A stretch of 64,000 nucleotides of DNA, taken from Minisyncoccota bacterium (lineage in GTDB: Bacteria; Patescibacteriota; Minisyncoccia; JBAYJV01). The notes beneath the pieces are model-generated. The model did no database searches. It was not told the DNA's origin and was given only the letters and a program-made list of their open reading frames with translations. Positions 1,008 to 45,641 of this stretch are shown one piece after another (position 1 is the first letter of the stretch; every line of letters starts with the position of its first letter). The position numbers and the translations under genes are program-made. Location: assembly GCA_041664925.1 (NCBI GenBank), contig JBAYJV010000002.1, positions 136,302-200,301 on the forward strand, read 5' to 3'.

Positions 1008-1137
1008 AAATTCGAATATCGAAATCCGAAAATCGAAACAATATTTAAATCTAAAATTCTAAATCTAAAACAGTTTAAATATTAGATATTTGAATTTTGA
1101 ATTTGTTTCGTATTTCGTGCTTTGTATTTCGGATTTA
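1008..1137. repeat. AT-rich ~130-nt dispersed repeat, copy 1 of 3 (core aaattcgaatatcgaaatc...gaaacaatat.taaat...aaaacagttt...atttcg)
   Basis: Near-identical blocks at 1008-1137, 4778-4910 and 21180-21299. Each lies directly upstream of a minus-strand housekeeping gene (dus, mfd, ychF). Confidence 0.7.
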
Positions 1138-1154
1138 TTACATTATATCACAAC

Positions 1155-1262
1155 ATCCCGCACCAGAATAAATACGGTGCGGGATTATTAATTGCGTAAT
1201 TTCTTGCTCTGCTCGAAAACGCAATCAATAAAAAAGACGGGCTCCAGCGCTGTGGAGCCCGC
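1155..1262 (-). repeat. Composite structured element, copy 1 of 4: intrinsic terminator hairpin + 'TTATTGATTGCGT...ACGCAATCAATAA' hairpin + 'CCCGCACC..GGTGCGGG' hairpin
   Basis: Copies at 1155-1262, 1731-1833, 9688-9804 and 10648-10817. On the minus strand the GC hairpin is followed by a T-run. Copy 3 changes gcg/cgc to ctg/cag in the second hairpin, which preserves pairing. Confidence 0.7.
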
Positions 1263-1598
1263 TTACTGCCTTGCCAAGCTGTAGAAGATGCCGATAGAAG
1301 ACTTGGCACCCGGCGCGAGTTGAAATTGCTCGCTACCGCCCACTCAAGCGCAGTGGTCTACTAACTTGGCGGTGAGTCTGCAGCCTTCGCCACGACGGGG
1401 GAGTGTCCCTTATTCCGGCGAGAACTGTGTCAGCCGATTGATGAGTCAATAGACCCGTGCGATCGCTTACTTTTAGTACCCACGGCGATCACCAGTGCTG
1501 ACGGCGCTGCAGACCATTGATAGAGAGGCGGTGTAAGTACAACCAGTACCGTTGCGAGCGTGCACATAGCAGACCACACCGCCTCCCAAATCACATCA
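1232..1598 (-). ncRNA. GC-rich structured ncRNA candidate A (~365 nt), family unassigned
   Basis: Minus-strand -35 TTGACA (1628-1633) and -10 TATAAT (1606-1611) with a 16-nt spacer. No ORF of 60 aa or more. GC-rich in an AT-rich background. Long internal helices such as gaggcggtgt...acaccgcctc. Ends at a terminator hairpin plus T-run near 1235-1260. Confidence 0.5.
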
Positions 1599-1730
1599 TA
1601 CTCCCATTATACTCCTTTTAATTTATTTGTCAAGAGATATGGTAAATAAACTCAAAAATATTAAGTAATCCTCCTTCGCTAATCTGTTTACTGATAGATG
1701 TTTCGAGTTTATTATTATATCATAACAACA

Positions 1731-1833
1731 TCCCGCACCAGAATAAATACGGTGCGGGATTATTGATTGCGTAATTCTCGCAAACTCGAAAACGCAATCA
1801 ATAAAAAAACAGGCTTCAGCTATCTGAAACCTG
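1731..1833 (-). repeat. Composite structured element, copy 2 of 4
   Basis: Same three-hairpin architecture as 1155-1262, immediately 3' of candidate ncRNA B. Confidence 0.7.
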
Positions 1834-2005
1834 TGACTTCCAGCAGGAAGGGGTAGAGGCATAGTCATGTCTGTTCGTCCCAAGAGAGTTGACACCTCTT
1901 TTGTCGCTCTCGGAATACGCGTGCACGGAACGCGGAGAAGAGCGATTGACTACCCCTTCCTTGTCTTTTGCGGTTAGCGGTTGGCTTTATCCAGTCGCTT
2001 TATGT
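1806..2005 (-). ncRNA. GC-rich structured ncRNA candidate B (~200 nt), family unassigned
   Basis: Minus-strand -35 TTGACA (2035-2040), 16-nt spacer, -10 TAAAAT (2013-2018). An 11-bp closing helix GGAAGGGGTAG/CTACCCCTTCC encloses about 110 nt. Terminator plus T-run at about 1806-1830. ORF-track hits here (1623..1895, 1889..2098) have no RBS and cross repeats. Confidence 0.45.
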
Positions 2006-2159
2006 AATAAGCATTTTAGCAAACCCAAAAACTTTGTCAAGAGCTCTAAGAAAAAATGCCAATATTTGCGAATAAGAAATGCAAATTATCGCGAATAACT
2101 AGTAAAATCTTTGGAATTCTTCTCTCGCCTTCGGCGGATCAAAATGAAACTATAAAATA

Positions 2160-2215
2160 TTATAGTTTATAGTCTATAGTCTAAAGTGCCGAGCTTAAGC
2201 TCGTTAATCGATTGA
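2160..2215. repeat. Duplicated fragment of the mfd 3' end
   Basis: 'gtctaaagtgccgagcttaagctcgttaatcg' at about 2181-2212 is nearly identical to the mfd 3' coding end at about 2731-2762; both encode ...ELKLGTLDY... Confidence 0.6.
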
Positions 2216-2277
2216 CTTTTATGATAAATAATGTAATATAGAATTGGTTCTTTAAAAAAAGAGAAAAAGGAGAAGAA

Positions 2278-2646
2278 ATGAAATACAAGGATGCATTGTT
2301 TTTGTTTTTTAGAGTGATATTCGGATGTCTTGTTGCTGGATCTATGTTTATAGTTAGCACCATGTTTTTCGAAACTCAATTTACTCCTGTTGTAATATTG
2401 CCGATCGCTTTGTGGTTAGGCTTCATACTGTGTATGTTAACATTTCCAGAAACAAATAATTGGCTACAAGTTTCTTGCAGAATAGGATATGTTACATTTA
2501 TGGCATTAGTTGTTACCGTAACACCTCATAGCGCATTGACCGGTGCTATATTATCAGTTCTTGCGGTTATGTGCTTTACTGTTCATTCTTGGTTTAAAAG
2601 AAAACACATTACTCACATAAGATTTGTTGAAAAACTTTTCGGCTAA
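2278..2646 (+). CDS. Small integral membrane protein, function unknown
   Basis: RBS aaaggag upstream, hydrophobic helices, terminator hairpin + T-run at about 2665-2700. Confidence 0.5.
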   Translation: MKYKDALFLFFRVIFGCLVAGSMFIVSTMFFETQFTPVVILPIALWLGFILCMLTFPETNNWLQVSCRIGYVTFMALVVTVTPHSALTGAILSVLAVMCFTVHSWFKRKHITHIRFVEKLFG

Positions 2647-2707
2647 CAACAATCATGTAGTTACAAACTGAAGAGGCGAAAGAAATCGCCTCTCTTTTTT
2701 TTATAAT

Positions 2708-4723
2708 CTAAAAAGTGTAAGTTTTGTAGTCTAAAGTGCCAAGCTTAAGCTCGCTAATCGCTTGATTCAAGATTTGATAATAGAGATTGATGCCAACCTT
2801 GTTGATTGCGCCTGATTGTTCACGCCCTAAAAGATTTCCCGCGCCCCTGATTTCCAAATCTTTGGCCGCCAATTGATAACCGGCTCCCAGATAAGAATAT
2901 CTTTCAAGCGCAGATAATCTTTCTTTTGCAATCGGCGTTAAGCTGTGGTGCGGATAAAGAAAATAGGCATAAGATTGGCGTTCACCGCGCCCAACCCGAC
3001 CACGAATCTGATGCGCTTGCGCCAAACCAAGCCGTGTTGCGTCTTCCACAATCAAAGTATTTACATTCTTTAAATCAAGCCCATTTTCAATAATAGAAGT
3101 GGCGATCAAAACATCGAATTCGCCCTTTCTAAAATTATGAATAGTATCAACCAAGTATTTTTCGCTCATCCTTCCATGAAGTGAGGCAAATCTCAATCCA
3201 GGGAGAAGTTTTTTGAGTTTTTGCTCGGTCGCTGAAAGCGTGCCAATGCGATTATGCAAATAATAAACCTGACCATGACGCAATATTTCTCTTTGAATAA
3301 CTTGCTTGACTAGGCCAGCATCAAAAAGCGAAACAGAAGTTTTAATCGGAAGTTTATAGGTCGGAGGTGTAGTAATCAAGCTGATATCTTTTAAATTAGA
3401 AAGAGCCATGTGAAGGGTGCGCGGGATCGGTGTCGCTGATAAGCTTAAAATATCAACATTCTCTCTCATTTCTTTGAGTTTTTCCTTCTGCTTGACGCCG
3501 AATCTTTGCTCTTCATCTATAATTAATAATCCCAAATCTCTAAAACAGATATCCTTAGAAAAAAGCCGATGAGTGCCGATTAGAATATCTACTTTTCCTT
3601 CTTTTAATTCATGTAAAATTTGTTTTTGTTCAGCCTTTGAAATAAGACGCGTTAAAAGCCGAACATTGATAGGAAATTGCCCTAATCTTTCCTTGAAAGT
3701 TGAATAGTGTTGATCTGCTAAAATTGTCGTTGGCGAAATCAAACAAACTTGTCTTTTATTCAAGGCTATTTTAAAAGCAGTTCTGATGGCGATTTCTGTT
3801 TTTCCGAAACCGACATCTCCGCAAATTAATCGATCCATCGGTCTTTCCCGAGACAAATCTTTGATGATTTCTGTCCAAGTTTGTTTTTGATCTTTTGTTA
3901 ATTCATAATCAAAGCTTGCTGATAACTGATCCTCGAATTCTGACTCCCCCTGATATGGTAATCTTTGCGAGATTTCTCTTTTTGCATAAAGGCGCAACAA
4001 TTCTTCAGCTAATTTAAGCGCATCCTCTTTAACCTTTCTCTTGGTTTTTTCCCAGATATTTCCCCCTAAACGCGTAAGTCTTGGCTGAACAAAACCAAGG
4101 TAAGGAGAAAGTTTACTTTCTAATCCCTCTGGTACTAACAACATATCATTACAGGCATATTCCAATTCATAATATTTTCTATCTTTTCGAATAATTACAC
4201 CCTTGAATCGCCCGACGCCATGATCAAGATGGACAACGAAATCACCCGAAACTAAATTTAGAATCGCTTCTTTGGGTACCTTAAATTTTTCTTCAATATT
4301 AATAACTCTCAGTTCTTTTTCAGTAAGACGATATATCTTTTCAATGGTATTGCCTAAAAATTCAATTCTGATAGGAAAATCAAGATTAATCGGGTAGATA
4401 TCAATAATTTCCCCTCTATGAGCATATTCTCCAGGAATATCGACAGTTCTGGCTTTATCATAATTCAAATCATCTAGTTGTTTTAAAAGCTCAAAGGGAT
4501 TAATGTGTTGTTCTTGTTCTATTGCAAGAGAAAATCTCTGCCAAAAGAAATTGAAAGCGCGAGCCTCTTTTATCTTAATTTGGTTATCTTGGAACCATTT
4601 TTTGAGTTTATCAATTTCTGCTCGATCAAAAACAGCCTTGGCTTTATCCCAAGCCAGGCCTAACGCTTCGTTAAAAAGTTCTGCTTTTTTCGCGAGAATA
4701 ATTATTGGCGAAATAGATTGCAT
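2708..4723 (-). CDS. mfd: Transcription-repair coupling factor, short form (CarD/TRCF RNAP-interaction domain + SF2 helicase + TRG motif; lacks UvrB-homology N-terminus and D7)
   Basis: 'GDFVVHLDHGVGRFKG' CarD-like motif; helicase motifs 'GDVGFGKTEIA', 'DEEQRFGV', 'SATPIPRT'; TRG motif 'LGAGYQLAAKDLEIRGAGNLLG'; only 671 aa. Confidence 0.8.
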   Translation of the reverse strand: MQSISPIIILAKKAELFNEALGLAWDKAKAVFDRAEIDKLKKWFQDNQIKIKEARAFNFFWQRFSLAIEQEQHINPFELLKQLDDLNYDKARTVDIPGEYAHRGEIIDIYPINLDFPIRIEFLGNTIEKIYRLTEKELRVINIEEKFKVPKEAILNLVSGDFVVHLDHGVGRFKGVIIRKDRKYYELEYACNDMLLVPEGLESKLSPYLGFVQPRLTRLGGNIWEKTKRKVKEDALKLAEELLRLYAKREISQRLPYQGESEFEDQLSASFDYELTKDQKQTWTEIIKDLSRERPMDRLICGDVGFGKTEIAIRTAFKIALNKRQVCLISPTTILADQHYSTFKERLGQFPINVRLLTRLISKAEQKQILHELKEGKVDILIGTHRLFSKDICFRDLGLLIIDEEQRFGVKQKEKLKEMRENVDILSLSATPIPRTLHMALSNLKDISLITTPPTYKLPIKTSVSLFDAGLVKQVIQREILRHGQVYYLHNRIGTLSATEQKLKKLLPGLRFASLHGRMSEKYLVDTIHNFRKGEFDVLIATSIIENGLDLKNVNTLIVEDATRLGLAQAHQIRGRVGRGERQSYAYFLYPHHSLTPIAKERLSALERYSYLGAGYQLAAKDLEIRGAGNLLGREQSGAINKVGINLYYQILNQAISELKLGTLDYKTYTF

Positions 4724-4777
4724 ATCAATAAATAAGCTGTCAATTTAAAATACTAAGATTATAGAACTTATGACTAA

Positions 4778-4910
4778 AAATTCGAAATCCTAAATCCAAA
4801 ATCCGAAACAATCTCTAAATCTTAATTTCTTAAATTCAAAACAGTTTTGGTATTAAGTATTTCTGAATTTTGTATTTGTTTCGAATTTCGAAATTCGAAT
4901 TTCGAAATTA
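4778..4910. repeat. AT-rich ~130-nt dispersed repeat, copy 2 of 3
   Basis: Matches 1008-1137 and 21180-21299; upstream of mfd. Confidence 0.7.
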
Positions 4911-5120
4911 CTATTAAAATTCTTGACAAAACTATAATAAAGGAGTATAATGGATAATAGATAGTAAGAATTTCTTTTTCTGATCTTACCTATGAGTGCT
5001 GATGCAGAAAATCCCTCCTATTTCTGCTAGGCTGTGAAGTTTAGGGATTAGTGCAACTGCGCTGATTTCTAACGCTCGTAGGTGAGATTAGGAAAGGAAA
5101 TCATCCAAGGAGGAAAGACT

Positions 5121-5267
5121 ATGAAGTGGAATCCATACGCAAACCAGATTTCCTGGCAAGCACGGCTCGCAAAGGAAACAGCCAATGAGGTATTCTGGAC
5201 ATACCTAGCCGTCTTTGCCGTAGCAGGTTCTCTGATGTTTGTACTTAGCCTCCTACTCGGAGCCTAA
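5121..5267 (+). CDS. 48-aa single-TM small protein behind a ~150-nt structured GC-rich leader
   Basis: Promoter TTGACA-17-TATAAT at about 4928-4957. RBS aaggagg then ATG at 5121. Terminator 'agagcggtctctaagagagaggccgcgcttttttt' downstream. Confidence 0.45.
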   Translation: MKWNPYANQISWQARLAKETANEVFWTYLAVFAVAGSLMFVLSLLLGA

Positions 5268-5315
5268 ACTAGCAAGACGAAAGAGCGGTCTCTAAGAGAG
5301 AGGCCGCGCTTTTTT

Positions 5316-5897
5316 TTAAAATGCAGTTTCTATAAATGAAATTGCATTTTTCTTTATGCTGATTAATTCTTTCTCTTCTTTCTGGTTAAATCTATCCAAT
5401 ACATAATTTTGAGTAATTTCTTTGTTTTTCTCTCCAGAGTCTTCATTCCAAATGCCAACTCTTAAGCGGTTAAAATCTTTTGTGCCCAAATGTTCTATAA
5501 TTGATTCAACGCCATGATGTCCGGCTGCTCCCTGGCCAAGAGAAATTTTTATTTTTCCAAAAACAATATCAATATCATCGTGAATTACCCAAATATTTTG
5601 CGGAATAATGCCGTAATAGTCTTTTATGAGTCTTAGAGCATAACCAGATTCATTCATATAAATTAGTGACTTTGCCAAAATAACTTCTTTTTGATTAATA
5701 TTTGTTTCTGCGATCTCGCTTTGAAATTTCTTTTTTTCGTCAAAATTACCGCCATGTTTTTTTAGTAATTCATCAAGAACCATTCTGCCAATATTATGTC
5801 TCGTGAGCTCATATTTTTCACCAGGATTTCCTAATCCGAAAATGAGAATTTTGTCCGATGTTTTTCTTTTAAAGAGTTTCATAAATTTCTTTGACAT
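5316..5897 (-). CDS. pth: Peptidyl-tRNA hydrolase
   Basis: 'ILIFGLGNPGEKYELTRHNIGRMVLDEL' N-terminal Pth signature with conserved His. Confidence 0.85.
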   Translation of the reverse strand: MSKKFMKLFKRKTSDKILIFGLGNPGEKYELTRHNIGRMVLDELLKKHGGNFDEKKKFQSEIAETNINQKEVILAKSLIYMNESGYALRLIKDYYGIIPQNIWVIHDDIDIVFGKIKISLGQGAAGHHGVESIIEHLGTKDFNRLRVGIWNEDSGEKNKEITQNYVLDRFNQKEEKELISIKKNAISFIETAF

Positions 5898-6873
5898 ATT
5901 GTTTTATTTGCGTATAATTATTAAGCCCTTGCGAAGGTGTTAAAACAAACATTCTGCCTTGGGAAGTTGAAATATAAGATTCGTCCAATAAAAGCGGATC
6001 TTTTATTGTCAATCTATAAGCTTTAGAAGATGAAATATCTAAATCCTTAGCGATTTCCCAAAACGACTTTAGCTCGCTAATAGAAATATCTGTTTCGATG
6101 TGTTCCTTAAAATTATCATAAAGTTTCATCGCCATATTAAAATTCTGAAATTGATTTTGGTTCTCTATTTTATTTCTCAGAGCTGCTAAAACCTGTTGTT
6201 GCCTCGTCATACGTCCAAAATCTCCTTCTTCATCATAACGCGTCCTGACATATTTTAGCAATATTTCGCCGTCAAGATGACGCCAGCCTTTTTCCAAATA
6301 AAATGGATCATAGCTGTAATTGGGGCCGGGAAAAAGAGGATCTTTAATATCTTCTTTTACTGAAACATTCACTCCGCCAACATATTCGGAAATTTCTTTT
6401 AAAAGCTCCAAATCAACCACCACCGAATAATGGATATCTTGCCCCGTAATCGCAGATACTGTCTTTTTTATATCATTTGTGCTTATTCCCATCGCGTAAA
6501 AAGAATTAATTTTTTGATTATAACTGCGATTAGGCACTAAAACATAGAGATCTCTTGGAATTGAAAGTAAGACAACTTGATTTTTACGAAATGATGCGAC
6601 AATGATTGTGTCTGTAAGATTAGGAGCGGGGTTGCCTTTTCCCGGTTTTCCTAGAACAAGAACATTTGTCCAGCCATTGTCATCGACAAGCAAATTCTTA
6701 GAGGAAGAAAAAGTGAGCTCGAAAATGCGCCCAAGATTTAAAAATCCCTTTGTAAAAGAATTGGCCGTATCAAAGCCTCTGTTTTGAGGAATATAGATAA
6801 CCAAAAAGACAAGAAAGATAAAAACAACAACTAATGCAAGATTTTTAATAAATTCCTTAATTTTCTGGGGCAT
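5869..6873 (-). CDS. LytR-CpsA-Psr (LCP) family cell-envelope phosphotransferase
   Basis: N-terminal TM helix, then 'NVLVLGKPG...TDTIIVASF...LLSIPRDLYV'; LCP fold pattern. Confidence 0.75.
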   Translation of the reverse strand: MPQKIKEFIKNLALVVVFIFLVFLVIYIPQNRGFDTANSFTKGFLNLGRIFELTFSSSKNLLVDDNGWTNVLVLGKPGKGNPAPNLTDTIIVASFRKNQVVLLSIPRDLYVLVPNRSYNQKINSFYAMGISTNDIKKTVSAITGQDIHYSVVVDLELLKEISEYVGGVNVSVKEDIKDPLFPGPNYSYDPFYLEKGWRHLDGEILLKYVRTRYDEEGDFGRMTRQQQVLAALRNKIENQNQFQNFNMAMKLYDNFKEHIETDISISELKSFWEIAKDLDISSSKAYRLTIKDPLLLDESYISTSQGRMFVLTPSQGLNNYTQIKQYVKEIYETL

Positions 6874-6928
6874 TGAATAAAAAATAAATTTCTGGTAAAA
6901 TCAGACTGTTAATTGGTATTTTCTTAAA

Positions 6929-7492
6929 ATGAAAAAAATTTTTTCAATCTTTTGGGAATTCATACAAGTTATCGCAATCTCACTTATTATTATTATACCC
7001 GTAAGATACTATATTGTTCAACCCTTCTTTGTAAAAGGCGCCAGCATGGAAACTTCCTTTCAAGATGGAGATTATCTGATTGTTGATGAACTTTCTTACC
7101 ACTTAAGAAATCCTAAGAGAGGAGAAGTTATTGTGTTTCGTTATCCTAATGATCCGTCGCAATTCTACATAAAAAGAATCATTGGTCTTCCAGGAGAAAC
7201 AATTCAGGTAACAGATGATCAAGTTAATATTAAAAATAGCAAACATCCCGAAGGATTTAGCTTAAACGAAACTGCTTATTTAGGAGTAGGCACGACTCCA
7301 GGAAACATAACAAAAACATTGGACACTAATAGTTATTTCGTCATGGGTGATAATCGTTTTCATAGTTATGATTCGCGAGGTTGGGGAGAATTGGATGGAA
7401 AATTCATAATTGGAAAAGTTCTTTTCCGTGTTTGGCCAATAAAACAAGCAATGGCTTTCAGTTTGCCTCAATATGGTATTACTGGAAATTAG
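6929..7492 (+). CDS. lepB: Signal peptidase I
   Basis: 'GASMETSF' catalytic Ser box, 'YIKRIIGLPGE' Lys box, 'GDNRFHSYDSRGWG'. Confidence 0.85.
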   Translation: MKKIFSIFWEFIQVIAISLIIIIPVRYYIVQPFFVKGASMETSFQDGDYLIVDELSYHLRNPKRGEVIVFRYPNDPSQFYIKRIIGLPGETIQVTDDQVNIKNSKHPEGFSLNETAYLGVGTTPGNITKTLDTNSYFVMGDNRFHSYDSRGWGELDGKFIIGKVLFRVWPIKQAMAFSLPQYGITGN

Positions 7493-7526
7493 TATTTTTT
7501 AATTTTTAGATTTTAAATTTGGCACC

Positions 7527-8840
7527 ATGCCTAAATTAAAATACCAAAGACCAAAAGGAACTTTAGATATTCTGCCAGAAGAACAGGTATACTGGCACAA
7601 AGTTAAAGATACGATAAGAAATATCGCGGAATATCATGGTTTCAATAGAATAGATACGCCCATTATTGAATCTACCGAGCTTTTTTCAAGAAGCATCGGC
7701 TCTTCTTCCGATATTGTTGATAAGGAAATGTTTAGCCTCAAAACAAAAGGCGGAGACAAATTAACCTTGCGCCCTGAAGCAACAGCTGCAATTGCTAGAG
7801 CCTATATTGAGAATGGCATGAAGAATCGCCGTCATCCTGTTAAGCTTTATTATATTGGATCGATGTTTCGCCACGAAAAACCTCAACATAATCGCTTGCG
7901 CGAATTTCACCAATTTGGACTCGAAGTTATTGGCAGTTCCAGCCCAATTATTGATGCTCAAATCCTTCAAATTGCTTTTGCGATCTTTAAAGAACTTTCT
8001 ATTAACGAATTAAGCGTCCACATCAACAGTATTGGTTGTAAAATTTGCCGACCTGAATACCTTAAAGCTCTCAAGAGTTTCTTGTCTTCTCAGTTAAGAA
8101 AGTTGCCCGTTGAATATCGCAAGAGAATTCAAGCCAATCCTTTAAGATTATTTGATATCAAAGACGAAAAATGCGAGAGAATCACCCAAGAAGCTCCTCA
8201 AATTGTCGATCATCTTTGTGAAGATTGCCGAGCTAATTTTGAAAAATTGTTGGAATTTCTCGATTTTCTTGATATTCCTTATGTCTTTAACCCTTATTTA
8301 GTGAGAGGTCTTGATTATTATAGCGGTCCTGTTTACGAAATTTTACCTTCAAATAAAGATTATGCTGCCAAAGAAGCTTTGGGTGGCGGTGGACGCTACG
8401 ATTATCTGATTAAGTCGCTTGGCGGTAGGGATGTGCCTGCAACTGGCATTGCTTTTGGACTAGAAAGACTGATTGGTTTTATGAAAGAAAATAATATTAG
8501 GGTTGATGCAAAAAGAGAGATTCCTGTATTTATAAGTCATCTTGGCGATTTTGGTCAAAAAAGAGCGTTAAAATTAACTGAGGAATTGCGCAAAGAAAAT
8601 CTATATATTCAAGAAGGATTGTCAAAATCAGGCCTCAAGCCTCAAAAGAAAATTGCCGATAAAAGTAATACCAGATTTACCGTTTTAGTTAGTCAAATGG
8701 AGGCTTTGGAAGAAAATGTTATCTTGCGCGATCAAGTTGCTGGAACCCAAGAGGTTATTGCCATAAAGGATATTGCAAAAAAGATTAGAGAGGCTTTAAA
8801 GAAAACCCCAAAAATTAAAAAAGATAAGTCGAAAAAATAA
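7527..8840 (+). CDS. hisS: Histidyl-tRNA synthetase
   Basis: Class II aaRS motifs; 'RHEKPQHNRLREFHQFGLEVIG' His-specific motif; anticodon-binding C-terminus. Confidence 0.9.
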   Translation: MPKLKYQRPKGTLDILPEEQVYWHKVKDTIRNIAEYHGFNRIDTPIIESTELFSRSIGSSSDIVDKEMFSLKTKGGDKLTLRPEATAAIARAYIENGMKNRRHPVKLYYIGSMFRHEKPQHNRLREFHQFGLEVIGSSSPIIDAQILQIAFAIFKELSINELSVHINSIGCKICRPEYLKALKSFLSSQLRKLPVEYRKRIQANPLRLFDIKDEKCERITQEAPQIVDHLCEDCRANFEKLLEFLDFLDIPYVFNPYLVRGLDYYSGPVYEILPSNKDYAAKEALGGGGRYDYLIKSLGGRDVPATGIAFGLERLIGFMKENNIRVDAKREIPVFISHLGDFGQKRALKLTEELRKENLYIQEGLSKSGLKPQKKIADKSNTRFTVLVSQMEALEENVILRDQVAGTQEVIAIKDIAKKIREALKKTPKIKKDKSKK

Positions 8841-8880
8841 TGATTTCACTTGAAAAACAAAATAATATTAAACAAAGGAG

Positions 8881-9159
8881 GTGTCAAAAATGGTAAAAGC
8901 AGTTCGTCAAGATAGAGAAAATGTTTCTTCCTTGTTGCGCCGTTTTTCTATGAATGTAAAAGAAAGCGGTATTTTGTCAGAAGTTCGCCAAAAACGCTAT
9001 TATAGAGAACAACCGACAAAACGACAGGAAAAACTATCTGCTCTTTGGCGTAATAAAATCGGCAAACTTAAGCATAAGATGGTTAAAATGGGCGAAATTC
9101 AAAAAGGACAAAAAATCGACCCAGAAAGAATTCGTAAAGAATTTCAAAGTGACAAGTAA
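8881..9159 (+). CDS. rpsU: 30S ribosomal protein S21
   Basis: 'LLRRFSMNVKESGILSEVRQKRYYREQPTKRQEK' matches the S21 pattern; RBS aaaggagg. Confidence 0.8.
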   Translation: MSKMVKAVRQDRENVSSLLRRFSMNVKESGILSEVRQKRYYREQPTKRQEKLSALWRNKIGKLKHKMVKMGEIQKGQKIDPERIRKEFQSDK

Positions 9160-9613
9160 ACTATTTGATCAAATCAAACAAGACTTAGTCCTAATCCTTA
9201 AGGCAAATAAACCTCAAGAGGTTTTGGTTTTGCGAGGGATTTTGTCATCTGTTCATAATAAAGAAATTGAAAAAGGAAAAGATGCGGAATTAATAGATGA
9301 CGATGTTCTTTCGGTTTTGATGCTCGAAGCAAAGAAAAGAAAAGACGCAATTGCGCTTTATGAGAAAGGCGGGCGCCCAGAAAAAGCCGAAGATGAACGC
9401 CGTGAACTTGAAATTATATCTAAATATTTACCAGAGCAGTTATCGGAAGAAGAAATAACGGAAATCGTTAAAGAAGTTATAAAGGAAACCGGTGCCGAAA
9501 CAATGCAAGATATGGGAAAAGTCATGGGTCAGATTATGGCAAAAGTGAAAGGAAAAGCCGATGGCATGAAAGTAAAAGAAATTGTTGGAAGAGAACTGAT
9601 GCAGAAGGCATAA
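9149..9613 (+). CDS. yqeY: GatB/YqeY domain protein
   Basis: YqeY-like sequence; conserved adjacency to rpsU; terminator 'ttacagagaatttctctgtaatttt' follows. Confidence 0.75.
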   Translation: MTSKLFDQIKQDLVLILKANKPQEVLVLRGILSSVHNKEIEKGKDAELIDDDVLSVLMLEAKKRKDAIALYEKGGRPEKAEDERRELEIISKYLPEQLSEEEITEIVKEVIKETGAETMQDMGKVMGQIMAKVKGKADGMKVKEIVGRELMQKA

Positions 9614-9687
9614 CTTTACAACACTACAACTTAACGACTTAACAACAAAAAATTACAGAGAATTTCTCTGTAATTTTGCTTAATATA

Positions 9688-9804
9688 CCCTCCTTCGCCA
9701 TAGTCTGCCTGTCGGCAGACAGGGCTACGGACGGGTTATTGATTCTGTAGTCTCTCGTAAACTCAAGAACAGAATCAATAAAAAAGCGGAGATCGTATCT
9801 CCGC
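9688..9804 (-). repeat. Composite structured element, copy 3 of 4 (covarying second hairpin)
   Basis: Terminator gcggagatacgatctccgc + T-run, then 'ttattgattctgt...acagaatcaataa' with compensatory substitutions relative to the other copies. Confidence 0.7.
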
Positions 9805-9815
9805 TAAGTTTTTTC

Positions 9816-10115
9816 TTAAATTGTTATCATGCCTGCGCAAAAACTCAAAAACAATCCATAGGCGATAATAGTTTTAAGAGAATCTTTCTTTTTAGGAATA
9901 AGCCACAAACATATTACAAGAAAAATCTCTATACATACAAAAATATTACTTATCGATATTCCATTAAAGCCAATATTCCACAAAGGCATTACTCCAAATG
10001 CTTTGAGTAACATAATTATTGTTGAAAATAATGGCAAAATCGGAAACACCAAAGAGCTAATGTTAAGATTTTTCTTTTCTCTTACTTGTTCCATTTTTCC
10101 TCCTTTACTCCTCAA
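9816..10115 (-). CDS. Small membrane protein, unknown
   Basis: Two or three hydrophobic helices; followed by composite element copy 3. Confidence 0.45.
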   Translation of the reverse strand: MRSKGGKMEQVREKKNLNISSLVFPILPLFSTIIMLLKAFGVMPLWNIGFNGISISNIFVCIEIFLVICLWLIPKKKDSLKTIIAYGLFLSFCAGMITI

Positions 10116-10479
10116 CCGCTATCATTTCTTCTAATCTTTCAGCGATGAATGATAGCTGAACAATCTCATCGGCTGTGAAATACTTTGGCAAGTCCCGTCT
10201 TATTTCTTTCAGAACATCATTTCTTATGGCAAATTTTTGACCATTTAATCCTTCATAACACACGATACCTGATACTAATAAGCAATCAAAAACCCCTTCA
10301 AGTTTTTCGGAAAAACCAGATTCTCCAAAAACCAGTCCCCTTAACAGACTAAATGTCCTTAATCTCTTAAATGCTCGATGTAATAAACCTTGATTTGCCG
10401 AAATATGTCCTGACCTAATGAAGCTTAAAACTCCTTTAATCACTTCTTTGATATTAATTTCTCTCTTTTCTTGCACCAT
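10105..10479 (-). CDS. Hypothetical protein behind a modular conserved leader
   Basis: RBS 'ctctaagggaggaagaATG'. Leader modules ATGTAGTCC-hairpin, TAACCCTTCGATAAACGCAGGGCAAGG and AGCTTTTAAGTTCAC.AAAGTTTACTAAAAATCTCTAAGGGAGG. Confidence 0.5.
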   Translation of the reverse strand: MVQEKREINIKEVIKGVLSFIRSGHISANQGLLHRAFKRLRTFSLLRGLVFGESGFSEKLEGVFDCLLVSGIVCYEGLNGQKFAIRNDVLKEIRRDLPKYFTADEIVQLSFIAERLEEMIAVEE

Positions 10480-10647
10480 TCTTCCTCCCTTAGAGATTTT
10501 TAGTAAACTTTCGTGAACTTAAAAGCTCCTTGCCCTGCGTTTATCGAAGGGTTAGGTCCTGAGCTTGTCGAAGGACTACATTCATATAATTTTGAAGAAC
10601 TACTCTATATTACATACTTTTTAAATTTTGTCAATAAATATAACAAT

Positions 10648-10817
10648 ACCCCGCACCAGAATAAATACGGTGCGGGGTTATTGACTGTGTAATCTTCGTT
10701 TTCTCAGAAAATACTTAAGGTAATCCTTCGACTTCGCTCAGGATATTGATTGCGTACTCCTTCATAAATTCAGGAACGCAATCAATAAAAATGAGGGCGG
10801 TTTCGTTACCGCCCTCA
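10648..10817 (-). repeat. Composite structured element, copy 4 of 4 (with internal partial duplication)
   Basis: Terminator gagggcggtaacgaaaccgccctc + T-run directly 3' of the GC-rich def; attgattgcgt hairpin; ccccgcacc hairpin; inserted degenerate half-copy 'ttattgactgtgtaat'. Confidence 0.7.
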
Positions 10818-11255
10818 CTACGCTCCGACCATTCTCTCGATGAACAGGATGCCATCGAGATGGTCAACTTCGTGCTGGACAACTCGCGCCATCCAGCCAT
10901 TAAACTTTCCCACTTGTCTCTTGCCATTCTCATCAAAGAAGCCCAGCAGAACTTCTACCGACCTCCTGACGAGTCCGTATTGTCCGGGGAAGCTTAGACA
11001 TCCTTCCTCGGAACATTTTACCTGAAGCGACTTTCTCACGATCTGAGGATTGGTCAAAATGGTTACCCGACCTTCTGCGTCCTTCACGGCGAACACCCTC
11101 AGATTGACACCAATCTGGGGCGCAGCCAACCCTACGCCAGTTTCCGACCCAAGAAGATCTTCCTTTAACTCTCCGACTAGCTCTCGGAAAGCCATCGCCT
11201 TGAAATCCTCTACGGGCAATGACTTTTGCTTAAGCACATCGTTCGGATAAAGCAG
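10818..11255 (-). CDS. def: Peptide deformylase (GC-rich paralog; probable TTG start after RBS ggaggtg)
   Basis: 'GLAAPQIGVNLRVFAV', 'EGCLSFPG', 'QHEVDHLDGILF' metal-binding motifs; GC content far above neighbours; promoter motif 'ataatatgcTATAATg'. Confidence 0.8.
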   Translation of the reverse strand: MLYPNDVLKQKSLPVEDFKAMAFRELVGELKEDLLGSETGVGLAAPQIGVNLRVFAVKDAEGRVTILTNPQIVRKSLQVKCSEEGCLSFPGQYGLVRRSVEVLLGFFDENGKRQVGKFNGWMARVVQHEVDHLDGILFIERMVGA

Positions 11256-11377
11256 GATTCCGGACAACCCCAACCACCTCCATTCTTACTATCATTATAG
11301 CATATTATTAATAAAAAATCAAGCTTTTTCCAAAAAAAATACAGCTAATCGCTGTATAATAAGATTTTTTTATTTAT

Positions 11378-11824
11378 TTACTTGATTAATTTATCTACAT
11401 ACAATATTCCATTCAAATGATCGATCTCATGCTGAAAGGCTTGAGCAATAAGGCCTTTAACAGTGGTTTTGTGTTTTTTGCCGGTTTCATCATAATATTT
11501 CATAACAACCTTGCTCGATCTTTCCATTTCATCAAATTCTCCGGGAACGCTTAAACATCCTTCATTGAATAAGTTTTTTTTATTAGAAAAATGGGTGATT
11601 TCAGGATTGATAAAAATCTTAATTTCACCTTTCATATTTAAAACAAAAACCCGAAGATTAACACCAATCTGAGGAGCAGCTAGTCCCAACCCTTCTTTTG
11701 TTACTAAAAGAGTGTCTATTAAATCTTTAATTGTTTGTTTTGTTTCTTTGGACTCAAAATCAACAACAACTTCAGATCGGGTTCTTAATATTTTACTTGG
11801 TTCACGCAAAATGCTTTTGATCAT
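11378..11824 (-). CDS. def: Peptide deformylase (AT-rich, native-looking paralog)
   Basis: 'GLAAPQIGVNLRVFVL', 'EGCLSVPG', 'QHEIDHLNGILY'. Confidence 0.85.
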   Translation of the reverse strand: MIKSILREPSKILRTRSEVVVDFESKETKQTIKDLIDTLLVTKEGLGLAAPQIGVNLRVFVLNMKGEIKIFINPEITHFSNKKNLFNEGCLSVPGEFDEMERSSKVVMKYYDETGKKHKTTVKGLIAQAFQHEIDHLNGILYVDKLIK

Positions 11825-18562: not shown

Positions 18563-18922
18563 ATGAATAAGGATAAGAAGAAAAAAGAAGAAGCAAAGAA
18601 GCAGGCCATTTTGGGGCTCAAGATAGCACGGTATGCCCTATCAGAAAATGTTGAGCTTACCATTAAATCACTCCGTGAAAATGCTGATAAGGCTGGCTGT
18701 TCGCTTGAACAAATAGGAACCAGAGAACAAGAATTAGAGGCTCTTCTGGTTGCTGGCTATAAGAATGAGGCACTCGAAATTAGTAGTCGTTGGCGTAAAG
18801 AAGGTTTTGTTAAAAAGCCGAAGGACAGCGTTGGTTATCTTCGCAGATGCATTGCCAACGCAGGATGCATTCCTGAAGATTTTGGATTAACGGAGGAACT
18901 ACTAAGAAAAATCTGTGTATAA
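18563..18922 (+). CDS. Hypothetical Lys-rich protein
   Basis: RBS aaaggaggaaag; terminator 'ggcgaatgacaaaaatcattcgccttttt' follows. Confidence 0.45.
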   Translation: MNKDKKKKEEAKKQAILGLKIARYALSENVELTIKSLRENADKAGCSLEQIGTREQELEALLVAGYKNEALEISSRWRKEGFVKKPKDSVGYLRRCIANAGCIPEDFGLTEELLRKICV

Positions 18923-21179: not shown

Positions 21180-21299
21180 TAAATTCGAATATCGAAATCA
21201 GAAACTCGAAACAATATCTAAATTCGAATGTTCTAAATCCAAAACAGTTTAAAATTTTAATTTTTAAATATTAGAATTTGTTTTGGATTTCGGATTTCG
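21180..21299. repeat. AT-rich ~130-nt dispersed repeat, copy 3 of 3
   Basis: Upstream of ychF; preceded by 'gaagttagaagttagaagctagaagctggg', a motif also at 49691-49718. Confidence 0.7.
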
Positions 21300-21310
21300 C
21301 CTGCCTACCG

Positions 21311-32331: not shown

Positions 32332-32407
32332 AAGCTTTGAGGCGAGAGAAAAGCTTCTCGCCTCCTTTCTCCGACTACTTAGTAAATATTAGGTGCTCGA
32401 AGTAAGT

Positions 32408-32554
32408 TAGTTCTTTAAAAAATAAATATAAGGCTCTAATACAGGCTTATGCGAAACAAAGCGTAGCCCCAGTACCAGAATTCGCTTCGCTCATTCGGTA
32501 CAGGGCGTAAGAGTTTATAAGTTTCGCTTTGCTCAACAACAAACACTAACGGAG
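32408..32554 (+). promoter_or_regulatory. Conserved structured leader, copy a (…taaggctctaatacaNgcttatgcgaaacaaagNgtagccccNgtacc agaattcgcttcgctcattc ggtacagggcgtaag…ctaacggaggtg)
   Basis: About 90% identical over roughly 110 nt to copies at 35510-35662 (+) and 47385-47510 (-); hairpin cccNgtacc/ggtacaggg; ends in a shared RBS. Confidence 0.6.
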
Positions 32555-32560
32555 GTGCGC

Positions 32561-34449: not shown

Positions 34450-34642
34450 AGCTTTGGGGCGAGAGAGAAAAACTTTTCTCGCCCCCTTTCTCCAGTCACT
34501 TATTATTAGGTGATTGAAGGAAGTCTGTTAGTAAGCTCAGGACAAATCCTTCGACAGGCTCAGGATAAATCCTTCGATAAATTTGTGGTTAACATGTCTA
34601 ACCACTCAGGACAAGTCAGTTCTTTAAAAAATAGACAAGGAG

Positions 34643-35377
34643 ATGATAAGAGTGAAAACGATCATGATTAACGGCAAAGAAGTACCCGTAACAGGAGAAA
34701 GCGTTGACCAAGCTATTAATAGTATAATTTTTAAGGATTGGTTGGCATCATTGAATCGACTGTTCGTAATCAAATCAATCCATTTTCAATCAGTTGACAT
34801 TTCTCCTAGGACATCAAGGGTAAAATTTATCAAAGCTAAAATAGAATTAATTGATTGTGATGGAAGTAAATTTACGAACATCATTTTCATGCGTGGCGGT
34901 GCAGTTACAATTCTCTTTGTTATTCATGTGGATAAAGAAGAATTCACAATTTTGACTCGTCAGCCTCGTCTACCCTCAGGATCATTTAGACTATTGGAAA
35001 CTCCTGCCGGTACAATTGACACGAGCGAAACTGCTGTCAAAGTTGCCGTCAGAGAAATTTGGGAAGAAGTGGGTATTAAGATTCGCGAAAATCAATTAAT
35101 AGATCTAACTGCGCACTTTCATGAAAAACGCCATAAGGGTATTTATACATCACCTGGAGCATGTGATGAGTTCCTTCGAATCTTTCTCTGTGAAATCACT
35201 ATGACAGATGGTGAGTTGGAGCAATTAAGAGGAAAACTTACAGGACTTAGAGATGAAGGCGAAAGAATTACCTTGGAGGTTTTTCGCCTAAGAGAACTTC
35301 CTTTTGAAGCTCCTGATGCCAAATCTCTTGCCGCTCTAGCCTTGTATGATGCTTACATACGAGAGCACAGTACTTAG
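34643..35377 (+). CDS. Nudix hydrolase (ADP-ribose / NAD-derivative pyrophosphatase-like)
   Basis: Nudix box 'GTIDTSETAVKVAVREIWEEVGI'. Confidence 0.7.
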   Translation: MIRVKTIMINGKEVPVTGESVDQAINSIIFKDWLASLNRLFVIKSIHFQSVDISPRTSRVKFIKAKIELIDCDGSKFTNIIFMRGGAVTILFVIHVDKEEFTILTRQPRLPSGSFRLLETPAGTIDTSETAVKVAVREIWEEVGIKIRENQLIDLTAHFHEKRHKGIYTSPGACDEFLRIFLCEITMTDGELEQLRGKLTGLRDEGERITLEVFRLRELPFEAPDAKSLAALALYDAYIREHST

Positions 35378-35397
35378 TATAAAAGCACATAAAACAA

Positions 35398-35462
35398 GAG
35401 GCGACTTAAGTCGTCGCCTCCTTTCTTGGATGACTTAGAAAACTAAGTCATCGAAGTAAGTC
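35398..35462 (+). repeat. Identical ~65-nt junction module: terminator gaggcgacttaagtcgtcgcctc + hairpin ATGACTTAGaaaaCTAAGTCAT + cgaagtaag
   Basis: Exact second copy at 36828-36892; related modules at 32336-32400 and 34452-34520, all followed by AGTTCTTTAA. Confidence 0.7.
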
Positions 35463-35509
35463 CTCCGATAGATTCGATTTACTCACTACAAGCTAAACTC
35501 AGGACAAGT

Positions 35510-35662
35510 AGTTCTTTAACAATATAATATAAGGCTCTAATACAAGTTTATGCGAAACAAAGTGTAGCCCCGGTACCAGAATTCGCTTCGCTCATTCGGT
35601 ACAGGGCGTAAGAGCTTCTAAATTTCGTTTCACTCAACAAGAGTCTCTAACGGAGGTGTAAC
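35510..35662 (+). promoter_or_regulatory. Conserved structured leader, copy b
   Basis: See 32408-32554. Confidence 0.6.
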
Positions 35663-36826
35663 ATGCAAATAGTCTACACTGGAGAAAATCTTCCTAAAAA
35701 GATTGTCAAATCTATTTTTCTTGCCGGTCCAACGCCGCGATCAAAAGAAACGAATTCGTGGCGACCGGAAGCCTTAAGAATTCTCGAAGAGAAAGGTTTT
35801 AATGGAACAGTTTTTGTTCCGGAATTCAGAAATCGCGACAAAGAATACGCTGACGATATGGAAGAAAATACTATCTCTTGGGAAGAACAAGCTCTGAATA
35901 TGGCCGATTGTATTCTTTTCTGGATACCGCGAGATCTCAAAACCATGCCGGCTTTCACAACGGATGTTGAGTATGGCGAATGGTTTAAATCAGGCAAGAT
36001 TGTTTTGGGCGCTCCAAAGAATGCTCCCAAAATGAGCTATCTTTTGAAACGCGGACAGAAATATTACATTCCGCAGGCTACAACTCTTGAAAATACTATT
36101 GATATGGCCCTAGCTATGATTGGCAATGGCGCGCTGCGTGTTGAAGGAGAATGCCAGATACCATTACACATCTGGAAAACCGGATCTTTCCAATCGTGGT
36201 ATCAAGCCCAGATTCAAGCAGGCAATCGGCTGCACAGCGCCAAAGCAGAATGGGTATTCAGAGTTGGACCAAAGAAACAAATATTCTTCATTTGGATTCT
36301 CCATGTTGATATATATATCACTGCTGAAGAAAGACACAAGACCAATGAAGTTGTTATCGGCCGTCCCGACATTTCTACGGTCGCTCTGTATATAAGAGCT
36401 GATGACATTATGGATTCTGATATTGTTCTTATTAAAGAGTTTTGCAGTCCTGCTGCGACTGCCGATGGATATGTCTGGGAACCTCCCGGCGGCTCTTCAA
36501 TTAAAGGAGAGTACGATCCCCGAAAGTTAGCAGTAGATGAGGTTTTTGAGGAAACCGGACTTAAGATTAGCCCGGATAGAATCATTTTCAATGGCGCGCG
36601 GCAAATCTATGGAACCTTGTTGTCACATAAGGCATTTCTTTTCTCTGCGGAAATCACTAGAAACGAATTGGATTGGCTTATATCTCAAATTGGCATCGTT
36701 CACGGAGTAGAAAAAGATACTGAAAGAACATATGTGGAAATTGTCAAACTTCGAGATATTTTGAGCCAAGAACTTGTAGATTGGAGCGCATTAGGTATGC
36801 TTTTCGCTGCGCTCACAAAGAAATAA
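35663..36826 (+). CDS. Fusion protein: N-terminal nucleoside 2-deoxyribosyltransferase-like (NDT/Rcl-like Rossmannoid) domain + C-terminal Nudix hydrolase domain
   Basis: N-terminal 'IFLAGPTPRS...W...CILFWIP...EYGEWFKSGKIVLGAP' NDT-like pattern; C-terminal Nudix box 'GGSSIKGEYDPRKLAVDEVFEETGL'. Confidence 0.6.
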   Translation: MQIVYTGENLPKKIVKSIFLAGPTPRSKETNSWRPEALRILEEKGFNGTVFVPEFRNRDKEYADDMEENTISWEEQALNMADCILFWIPRDLKTMPAFTTDVEYGEWFKSGKIVLGAPKNAPKMSYLLKRGQKYYIPQATTLENTIDMALAMIGNGALRVEGECQIPLHIWKTGSFQSWYQAQIQAGNRLHSAKAEWVFRVGPKKQIFFIWILHVDIYITAEERHKTNEVVIGRPDISTVALYIRADDIMDSDIVLIKEFCSPAATADGYVWEPPGGSSIKGEYDPRKLAVDEVFEETGLKISPDRIIFNGARQIYGTLLSHKAFLFSAEITRNELDWLISQIGIVHGVEKDTERTYVEIVKLRDILSQELVDWSALGMLFAALTKK

Positions 36827-36827
36827 G

Positions 36828-36892
36828 CGCTTGAGGCGACTTAAGTCGTCGCCTCCTTTCTTGGATGACTTAGAAAACTAAGTCATCGAAGT
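36828..36892 (+). repeat. Junction module, exact copy of 35398-35462
   Basis: Identical sequence. Confidence 0.7.
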
Positions 36893-37016
36893 AAGAAGTT
36901 CTTTAACAAATAATCCTCCTTCGCCCCGGCTTGCCGGGGCTTCGGAAGGATGTAATATTTTCTAAATCTCGTTTCTCTCGGTAAGAAAATCTAACAAACA
37001 CTAACGGAGGTGTAAG

Positions 37017-45347: not shown

Positions 45348-45641
45348 CTAACTTCTACGAAATCTCACTTGACGATTGCGTGCAAGTAATTCCTTTGGCA
45401 TTCTCAGGCAAAAATATACTCTTTTATATTCAGCCAAAGACACTACGATAGAAGAGATCAATCCAACAAGTCCTGCTACAAAAACAAGTAATGTCAAACA
45501 TTCATCTGTCCAGTAATAATCACAAGTAAGATTATCCGAAGAATAATATTTCCTCCAATAACCCTTGTTGATTCCATAGCCGAAGAATCCCAGAACAAAC
45601 CACCCGGCTAAAGTAATCGCAATTACTGTTGCAGTTGACAT
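45348..45641 (-). CDS. Small membrane protein behind a modular conserved leader
   Basis: RBS 'ctctaaaggaggaaagATG'. Leader GTAGTCCcggcaagccGGGACTA hairpin + AGCTTTTAAGCTCAC.AAAGTTTGCTAAAAATCTCTAAAGGAGG. Promoter TTGACA-16-TAATAT then AGTTCTTAAAAA. Confidence 0.5.
   Translation of the reverse strand: MSTATVIAITLAGWFVLGFFGYGINKGYWRKYYSSDNLTCDYYWTDECLTLLVFVAGLVGLISSIVVSLAEYKRVYFCLRMPKELLARNRQVRFRRS

Follow-up and report, generated by a model that had tools for sequence, protein, structure and literature searches.

A structured intergenic repeat fused to intrinsic terminators in Candidatus Paceibacterota, a candidate boundary module of the REP/BIME kind

Repetitive extragenic palindromes (REP) and bacterial interspersed mosaic elements (BIME) of Enterobacteria and Pseudomonas are imperfect palindromes repeated after genes, and their location varies among strains; they keep their structure while the sequence changes, and evolve via recombination or gene conversion. 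Correia elements (NEMIS/CREE) and other bacterial miniature inverted-repeat transposable elements (MITEs) are small intergenic repeats with inverted termini, patchy between strains, which form RNA hairpins and can act as promoters or terminators or provide RNase III sites. In integrons, a structured, strand-specific hairpin with a variable upper part (attC) lies 3' of each accessory unit, and rearrangement breakpoints fall at this site. Several serial hairpins after a strongly expressed unit constitute tandem or clustered-hairpin terminators (PMC8355165), the uptake signals DUS/USS are short fixed sequences found in inverted pairs near terminators (PMC1852404), and the REPs of E. coli have a dual role, terminator-like attenuation and protection of upstream RNA (bioRxiv 10.64898/2026.03.23.713779). 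Here, we describe an element that shares features with each of these systems, present in 4 minus-strand copies in a stretch of 64,000 nucleotides (referred to as the window) from a metagenome-assembled genome (MAG) of Candidatus Paceibacterota in the Candidate Phyla Radiation (CPR; GC ~33%).

The window (contig JBAYJV010000002.1, assembly GCA_041664925.1) has the same letters as positions 88,034-152,033 of contig JBAZBV010000003.1 (GCA_041671265.1), a contig present in JGI sample 3300037810, and a Logan contig of SRR6484324 matches it with identity over 10.7 kb. With its left (10 kb) and right (8 kb) flanks, 82 kb of the source genome were covered. The genes around the element are ordinary (dus, mfd, pth, lytR, lepB, hisS, rpsU, yqeY, def, and priA), and are broken up by small variable islands. 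Comparison loci were metagenome contigs labelled L0xx (JGI/ENA; IMG/VR for L064-L154).

Each copy is fused to the T-run of a different intrinsic terminator (Table 1) and starts inside that run, confirming the position 3' of a minus-strand unit (two non-coding RNAs [ncRNAs] A and B, a small gene, and a GC-rich def) that an earlier, sequence-only reading of this DNA had assigned to all four. On the minus strand, a GC-rich terminator stem is followed by 5-7 T, without a break by a hairpin of ~46 nt (hairpin ii), and from the very next base by a second hairpin. The first terminators have GC-rich stems of 9-12 bp and U-tracts of 7-9 nt, and their stem sequences, which that reading had called variable, are unrelated between copies. 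Hairpin ii (TTATTGATTGCGT - 19-21 nt - ACGCAATCAATAA) folds on the sense strand and has AT-rich arms of 13 bp with the fixed sequence TTATTGATT-SY-GT / AC-RS-AATCAATAA; the 5' arm doubles as the distal U-tract of the terminator before it. It was found in 4/4 copies, with a loop of 19-21 nt in place of the 18-22 nt given previously. The upper part forms a helix of 4-5 bp with a tandem G.A motif, and represents in degenerate form a palindromic motif of very wide distribution, TCCTGAGC...TCGAAGGA.

The second hairpin is GC-rich, opens with CCC, closes with GGG, is directly followed by a U-rich tail, and occurs in several interchangeable sequences. The version CCCGCACC-N11-GGTGCGGG (hairpin iii) had been attributed to every copy; this was correct for copies 1, 2, and 4, while copy 3 has a different second hairpin of the CCCGTCC...GGAGGG type (hairpin iii'), an orthologue of which follows hairpin ii in L026 and L063, with a related sequence at that place in L045. 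The stem of hairpin iii recurs in L029 with a 44-nt insertion, and L021 has the version CCCTAAAGT/ACTTTGGGG with a similar loop. As an intrinsic terminator, the second hairpin has a clear GC stem of 8-11 bp, tails with 5-6 U in 10, and 2 of 3 copies (2 and 4) that pass the terminator scanner. No consistent -35/-10 that would give the module a promoter of its own was found on either strand by a promoter scan and sequence inspection.

A covariance model of hairpin ii returned the 4 copies at 70-76 bits (E ~1e-12) and the next-best, unrelated match in the window at 25 bits; folding of the copies relative to shuffled sequences gave z scores of -7.6 to -8.2, and hairpin iii occurred 3 times versus 0 in 100 shuffles. 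We state with high confidence that the element is real and far beyond chance. In copy 3, the arm change from GCG/CGC to CTG/CAG alters 2 base pairs on both sides and keeps the pairing, as originally noticed. The degenerate half-duplication reported in copy 4 does exist as an extra half; it is, however, the remnant of a second, long-loop variant of hairpin ii and no fresh duplication. This half is common to L062 and L063, and the variant is nearly intact in L029, where it follows a sigma-factor gene (5' arm TTATTGACTCTGT, loop TCCTGAGCGAAGTCGAAGGATTAC..., without the 3' arm); L029 also contains further terminator-adjacent hairpins with other arms (TTAATTTTCGT/ACGAAAATTAA) and the same apical motif.

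Table 1. Positions of the parts of the four copies and of the units upstream of them in the window
Feature	Position	Strand	Basis and remarks
Copy 1, terminator of ncRNA A	1237..1262	-	Terminator scan, folding; same stem in L062 without the module
Copy 1, hairpin ii	1185..1231	-	72 bits; 3' arm AATTAATAA, with G.U pairing that only the sense strand has
Copy 1, hairpin iii (CCCGCACC/GGTGCGGG)	1157..1183	-	Then tail TGTTGTGATATAATG (about 1130-1156)
Copy 2, terminator of ncRNA B	1809..1834	-	Terminator scan, folding
Copy 2, hairpin ii	1760..1804	-	70.6 bits
Copy 2, hairpin iii	1732..1758	-	Terminator-like in the scanner, tail GATGTTGTTA
Copy 3, terminator of the 124-aa/92-aa gene pair	9785..9805	-	Terminator scan, folding
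Copy 3, hairpin ii (CTG/CAG arms)	9736..9781	-	76 bits
Copy 3, alternative second hairpin iii'	9688..9735	-	CCCGTCC..GGAGGG around GTCTGCC/GGCAGAC
Copy 4, terminator of GC-rich def2	10790..10819	-	Terminator scan, folding
Copy 4, hairpin ii	10743..10788	-	Orthologous in L026, L062, and L063
Copy 4, extra half	10678..10742	-	CCTGAGCGAAGTCGAAGG, second GA motif, 3' arm ACACAGTCAATAA; 5' arm missing
Copy 4, hairpin iii	10650..10676	-	Promoter of the 124-aa gene (10634-10607) begins 15 nt downstream
Unit upstream of copy 1: promoter (1633-1606) and GC-rich ncRNA A	1263..1633	-	Consensus promoter; conserved in L062
Unit upstream of copy 2: promoter (2040-2013) and ncRNA B	1835..2040	-	Absent from L062
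Unit upstream of copy 3: 124-aa gene (10105-10479) and 92-aa membrane protein gene (9816-10094)	9816..10479	-	
Unit upstream of copy 4: promoter (11322-11294) and def2	10818..11322	-	Second peptide deformylase gene, 52% GC

Homologues were searched for in JGI/ENA metagenome contigs with a pattern that allowed both variable arm positions of hairpin ii, giving L021/L037, L024, L026/L047, L029/L049, L032/L044, and L045; the copies in L062 and L063 were found via homologues of def2. This amounted to 8 further independent sites (in L021, L024, L026/L062/L063, L029 with one full and one partial copy, L044, and L045), against the possibility, raised in the sequence-only reading, that the elements occur only here. 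All full copies are intergenic and lie directly on a terminator T-run in sense orientation. The unit before the module is ncRNA-like with a consensus promoter (L024 and L029), a small open reading frame (ORF; L021, L044, and L045), or def2, and the next promoter on the same strand follows closely, 15 to ~110 nt away at most sites.

Selection on the structure was analyzed in a set of 12 sequences from 9 independent sites. Pairing was present in 96.8% of cells, in comparison with 28-47% when partners were slid (overall ranges, 96.8-97.8% and 27-49%), and changes on both sides were found in 6 of 18 pairs: 2 in the outer arms (G-C/C-G and C-G/U-A) and 4 in the inner 4-5 bp stem. The covariation score was reached by 0/500 shuffles. 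The claim of selection on structure was thereby extended to an inner stem that the sequence-only reading lacked, and the structure proved strand-specific. On the sense strand, there were 7 G.U cells and no real A.C; the sole C.A cells (window copy 2 and L062; pair 23-36) are an artefact of a one-column alignment gap. Furthermore, the inner stem encloses tandem G.A / A.G (YYCUGAG...CGARRR), for which the opposite strand would give C.U / U.C. G.U without A.C and the sense-only tandem G.A indicated that a single strand folds, in the same sense as the upstream gene, which argues against both a duplex operator and a symmetric cruciform.

If the 13-bp inverted repeat served a dimeric regulator or nucleoid protein as an operator in double-stranded DNA, with a hairpin potential that is incidental, this would explain the strong conservation of the arm sequence and the location between a terminator and the next promoter, and the arm has, on a reading of its sequence, an ATCAA core as in IHF sites. 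We regard this as very improbable, because the 2 variable arm positions are always complementary (GC/GC or CT/AG, both types in one genome), covariation is found in the non-conserved inner stem, G.U pairs are present but A.C is not, the spacing between half-sites varies from 19 to 21 bp, and the distance to the promoter ranges from 15 to ~110 nt.

Constraint on the sequence was estimated at one orthologous site, consisting of def2, its terminator, and hairpin ii in the window, L026, L062, and L063 (~82-88% nucleotide identity among them). Invariant columns in the four genomes amounted to 25/26 in the arms of hairpin ii, 12/20 in its loop, 17/29 in the terminator region, 264/421 (63%) in the coding columns of def2, and 57/140 at its third codon positions; compared with the rates at coding columns and at third codon positions, the invariance of the arms had P = 9e-5 and P = 3e-9, respectively. 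The drift of the loop that the arms enclose makes gene conversion from other copies an unlikely cause. Judging from this pattern, the arm sequence is most probably read by something. The arms in L044 are 24/26 identical to those of copy 3, even though the flanking syntenic homologous protein is only 52% identical. We conclude with high confidence that pairing and arm sequence of hairpin ii are both under purifying selection. That the copies are neutral leftovers of a local segmental duplication, with a compensatory change by chance, is hardly credible: all 4 window copies do lie within 10 kb, but their upstream units and terminator stems are unrelated, homologues occupy other loci of other genomes, and the covariation and constraint statistics speak against neutrality, so that this explanation is in practice refuted.

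Comparison among relatives showed that module sites are gained or lost between close genomes. The terminator stem of ncRNA A (CGGGCTCCACAGCGCTGGAGCCCGTC + T6) is identical in L062, and is followed there by unrelated sequence and no module; L062 also lacks ncRNA B and copy 2, and has another GC-rich RNA behind the same promoter type instead. The syntenic L044 homologue of window gene 18563-18922 has a module, while the window terminator leads straight into the next promoter. L026 lacks window 9785-10740 (a 956-bp indel): the alignment stops at hairpin ii of copy 4 and resumes at hairpin ii of copy 3, so that both breakpoints are in hairpin ii, and the missing segment comprises a second hairpin, a promoter, the 124-aa and 92-aa genes, and a terminator. 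Since L062 and L063 retain the 124-aa gene, deletion between two direct repeats is the simplest history. The long form is found in 3 of 4 relatives, and deletion is favoured by parsimony only; the window, L026, and L062 are equidistant (~87% identity), and the phylogeny does not polarise the indel. An inverted repeat of ~22 bp (10558-10579 / 10719-10741) flanks the promoter of the 124-aa gene; this arrangement is not kept in L062 and L063, and an invertible promoter was rejected.

Of the earlier suggestion of a mobile or recombinogenic module, the recombinogenic part was borne out by the patchy presence at orthologous terminators and an indel bounded by two copies; no transposase was found in the 82 kb. 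The main rival explanation builds on the same patchiness: a selfish, non-autonomous mobile element (REP/RAYT- or IS200/IS605-derived) moved by a hairpin- and strand-specific enzyme acting on single-stranded DNA into T-tracts behind terminators, with effects on transcription as a by-product. It explains the patchiness and the fixed arms equally well as the boundary module preferred below, and it is further consistent with arms that are near-identical where the flanking protein is only 52% identical, a strand-specific hairpin with fixed arms as expected for HUH/Y1 recognition, a single orientation at all sites, and truncated and composite copies. Bacterial class C group II introns target terminators, and a group II intron reverse transcriptase is encoded in related genomes. 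Nevertheless, we consider a selfish element possible rather than probable. There is no transposase or recombinase among the called genes of the 82 kb; target-site duplications are missing, and the sole pair of filled and empty sites has no clean junction. In contrast to IS200/IS605 ends, hairpin ii and the second hairpin have no relation to each other, copy number is low and clustered, no match was found in plasmid or phage collections, and the resident copy at def2 kept its arms across four genomes while the loop drifted, indicating selection at that locus.

The same breakpoints may be read in another way, in which hairpin ii, like attC, marks the 3' end of micro-cassettes that run from promoter to terminator and are moved by a putative site-specific recombinase on folded single-stranded DNA. 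The element stands at the 3' end of every accessory unit and folds strand-specifically, both L026 breakpoints are at the 3' edge of hairpin ii, composite sites (complete plus half hairpin) are common to the window, L062, and L063, and the dus-mfd and def-yqeY gaps contain different small units in every relative. Against this, no integrase is nearby, R'/R'' GTTRRRY boxes are absent, the cassettes have their own promoters and form no array, the long form in 3 of 4 relatives makes the indel simplest as a deletion between direct repeats, and the 124-aa gene was found at no other genomic location. In this respect, relocation of the cassette had been considered for a 124-aa/93-aa pair between dus and mfd in L055, which turned out to be unrelated to the 124-aa/92-aa pair of the window. 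An attC-like site is thus quite improbable. The broader proposal that hairpin ii is the recognition hairpin of a putative sequence-, structure-, and strand-specific recombination system, which would exchange micro-cassettes (ncRNAs, an extra deformylase, small ORFs) at terminator T-tracts in an attC-like economy of CPR without a known integrase, is improbable as well.

The resemblance to known families was examined through their defining features. With REP/BIME, the element shares the repeated, imperfect extragenic palindromes after genes (4 window copies and 8 further sites, all intergenic), the strain-variable location, structure kept while sequence changes, and evolution via recombination or gene conversion. 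On the other hand, hairpin ii starts with TTATTGATT and has no GTAG/CGTC tag (GTAG is found only in the alternative second hairpin and in 5'-leader hairpins), the arms are AT-rich and not GC-rich, the element is fused to a pre-existing terminator T-run and is composite with a second GC hairpin, no RAYT gene is present among the called genes of the 82 kb, and there are only 4 clustered copies in 82 kb versus tens to hundreds dispersed genome-wide. In its defining features, the description as REP-like was not supported in the 82 kb covered.

The description as MITE-like was not supported either: target-site duplications were sought, and the flanks of the element, a T-run and CCC (or the tail), contained no direct repeat, comparison of filled and empty sites gave none, and no transposase was found in the 82 kb. 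Correia elements and MITEs have small size, intergenic location, inverted termini, RNA hairpins, and patchiness in common with the element, which differs in its one orientation and its constant position at a terminator. Terminal inverted repeats of a 46-bp unit might be seen in the 13-bp arms; these enclose only ~20 nt, and the repeated module extends beyond them into the second hairpin. No related insertion sequence (IS) was found in the window. The element had no match among 72,556 plasmids and 50,697 phage records, where ends of a known IS, the other possibility left by the sequence-only reading, would be expected. The attC sites resemble it in the strand-specific hairpin with a variable upper part 3' of each accessory unit and in the breakpoints, and differ in their R''/R' boxes (RYYYAAC...GTTRRRY; the arms here are TTATTGATTGCGT/ACGCAATCAATAA, and GTTATTG fails the RRR positions) and in the array; neither IntI nor a tyrosine recombinase was found in the 82 kb, in which the units have consensus promoters and terminators.

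Serial hairpins, and a helix of ~20 bp with an asymmetric internal loop between transcription units, are also found in clustered-hairpin terminators and the RNase III hairpins of phage T7; the middle hairpin of our element differs in its fixed primary sequence and in being a mobile or patchy repeat. DUS/USS likewise are short fixed sequences in inverted pairs near terminators, but the density here is far too low (8 half-sites in 82 kb), and a duplex uptake signal needs neither the pairing nor the inner-stem covariation that is selected here. TIGR stem arrays (Tas/Nop), in which hairpin loops contain two spacers between box C/D motifs beside a Tas gene with a Nop domain, and which have been reported in CPR, were rejected because there is no array, the self-complementary loops of 19-21 nt are too short for spacers, and no Nop-domain gene is present among the Pfam-annotated genes of the window. 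A box C/D K-turn or K-loop was rejected because the tandem G.A is not beside a 3-nt bulge, and hammerhead and group II intron ends because their core motifs are absent and Rfam gave no match. For the element as a whole, Rfam contained nothing relevant at gathering or E<=10 thresholds. An exact-pattern scan of 185,579 GTDB species genomes, again with both variable arm positions allowed, returned only 14 unrelated palindromes; since it did not recover the window copies, the source MAG, or at least its 4 pattern-matching copies, is evidently outside that collection. Viral contigs scanned for hairpin iii gave no match.

Since the element fails the defining tests of each family considered (REP, MITE, attC, and TIGR arrays), we call it new within the REP/BIME kind. 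The designation as a REP/BIME-like, recombinogenic boundary repeat is made with moderate confidence. The fuller reading, which we prefer tentatively, is a lineage-restricted structured intergenic repeat on intrinsic terminators, belonging to no described family, that probably handles read-through RNA and would also serve as a recombination substrate. In such a boundary module, the 5' arm would give a distal U-tract to the first terminator, and RNA escaping that terminator would fold hairpin ii into ~20 stacked pairs with an asymmetric bulge of 2-4 nt, a plausible sequence- and structure-specific site for a protein or an RNase (RNase III-type). The second GC hairpin and its U-rich tail would then stop read-through RNA as a back-up terminator and so insulate the promoter that follows, often at a distance of only 15-110 nt; in the DNA, repeated copies may act as homology patches for deletion or exchange of cassettes. 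The units before the module are self-contained accessory units with their own promoter (ncRNAs, an extra def, and small ORFs). Because the hairpins lie beyond a strong terminator and would be transcribed only by read-through, they are outside a normal 3' UTR (untranslated region), and the designation as a 3'-UTR module was abandoned; a role as stabiliser or processing signal is possible for read-through RNA only. For a specific read-through or processing function, our confidence is low to moderate.

Several observations weigh against the boundary module. Given the apparent strength of the first terminators, little RNA is expected to get as far as the hairpins, which makes selection at the RNA level less obvious, and the second hairpin has only weak U-tails behind it. 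A portable 5' leader (10556-10576, and several sites at 45-49 kb) has the reverse complement of the apical motif as its variable hairpin, which weakens a purely sense-RNA role for that part. All 4 copies in the 82 kb lie within 10 kb, unlike a general terminator accessory, and most window terminators have no element; relatives at 71-75% HisRS identity (L052-L058, 114 kb of syntenic DNA) have no module, and their terminators lead straight into promoters.

The apical motif itself is far more widespread than the module. TCCTGAGC-NNN-GTCGAAGGA had 95 matches in IMG/VR contigs with GC contents of 24-72%, with flanks recurrently GTCA...TC and a middle strongly biased to GAA/GGA/GTA; it corresponded to no Rfam family and to no paper found in the searched literature. 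In the form (GTCA)TCCTGAGCGnAGTCGAAGGA(TC), it was found at IMG/VR loci L064-L154, in the window (10720-10741 and 10556-10576), in L045 (700-870), and in L029 (2060, 2680, and 2975); in the CPR loci it occurs as single, tandem, or inverted copies, and looks like a very widespread small palindromic repeat. The portable leader mentioned above is part of a promoter and 5'-UTR module that precedes many unrelated small hypothetical genes (window 10480-10640, 45639-45775, 47165-47530, and 48433-48605); the promoter recurs at 50345, 51269, and 54438, and all of these sites serve minus-strand genes. It consists of TTGACA-17-TAATAT, AGTTCTTnAAAA, GTAGTCC[variable hairpin]GGACnTAAG, AGCTTTTAAGCTCAC, and a Shine-Dalgarno site, with a palindrome that carries a GTAG tag as the variable hairpin. 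For this hairpin, L063 uses the stem of hairpin iii (CCCGCACC/GGTGCGGG) with the loop reverse-complemented, and a CCCGTACC/GGTACGGG version is found at window 47341-47368.

Both ncRNAs upstream of the module have perfect or near-perfect sigma-70 promoters, a GC content of 50-57%, and no Rfam match. ncRNA A is 74-81% identical to its counterpart in L062, with a conserved core of ~110 nt; since it was kept in a relative with indels and without codon periodicity, it was judged to be non-coding. GC-rich (50-57%) ncRNAs of ~200-365 nt (window 1237-1633 and 1809-2040 on the minus strand, L062 19690-20352, and equivalents in L024 and L029) share near-identical consensus promoters (TTGACAAATAAnTTAAAAGGAGTATAATGG) and strong terminators, without an Rfam match, and different genomes have different RNAs behind the same promoter type. 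Two peptide deformylase genes are in tandem, def2 (10818-11273) and def1 (11378-11824), both on the minus strand. def1 (30% GC) has an orthologue in all relatives; def2 (52% GC), with its own promoter and terminator and intact catalytic motifs, is found only in the window, L026, L062, and L063, diverges faster (79% versus 93% amino-acid identity to L026 for def1), and has its nearest homologues outside these four at <=47% identity. Pfam returned nothing informative on the neighbouring small proteins.

Other repeats accompany the element. A second 'terminator + small hairpin' repeat, unrelated to hairpin ii, lies on the plus strand between the genes of an NAD-salvage cluster (32335-32560, 34455-34650, 35385-35670, and 36820-37025), and consists of GAGGCGAC..GTCGCCTCC TTTCTT GGATGACTTAG-AAAA-CTAAGTCATC GAAGTAAG and then a leader, shared by the copies, whose hairpin has a GTAG tag; two of the copies, 63 nt long, are identical. 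Its presence in the same genome suggests that this architecture is favoured in the lineage. AT-rich palindromes of ~130 nt (AAATTCGAAATCC...AAAACAGTTT...) are located directly upstream of the start codons of dus, mfd, and ychF (window 1008-1140, 4778-4915, and 21181-21300; L037 1723-1800, L044 3850-3950, and L062 446-546). A MITE-like element of ~100 nt with the termini GTCATTCTGA...TCAGGATGAC occurs in L062 (11200-11280, 18975-19075, and 20385-20450), L063 (1975-2085), and L029 (3680-3800), once directly after the ncRNA A terminator of a relative, where the window has the module. L029 3050-3680 is a tandem array of ~90 nt per unit, TACCCTCAGACTAGTCCGTGGGTATGAGGT plus a conserved AT-rich spacer; the spacers are alike, and it is therefore not a CRISPR array. 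Finally, a region of ~170 nt on the plus strand (window 4950-5120), before the small ORF 5121-5267 and with a consensus promoter at 4923-4951, is 73-93% identical in all relatives examined (L052-L058 and L062) and more conserved than most intergenic DNA here; it is a candidate leader or ncRNA without an Rfam match.

Genomes of CPR/Patescibacteria are small and commonly called streamlined, and to our knowledge, almost nothing is known about their non-coding DNA. The present analysis suggests that a clade within Paceibacterota, represented here by a few related genomes, keeps portable structured boundary modules on terminators, alongside an equally portable promoter-leader module, both at points of turnover of small accessory genes and GC-rich ncRNAs. 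A protein or RNase that binds the hairpin would form with it a new pair for the recognition of RNA or single-stranded DNA in an uncultured phylum, and the element would be a ready-made terminator/insulator part; a recombination site would instead indicate a new cassette system. In both cases, the covariance model of hairpin ii may provide a handle for tracing such islands in metagenomes.

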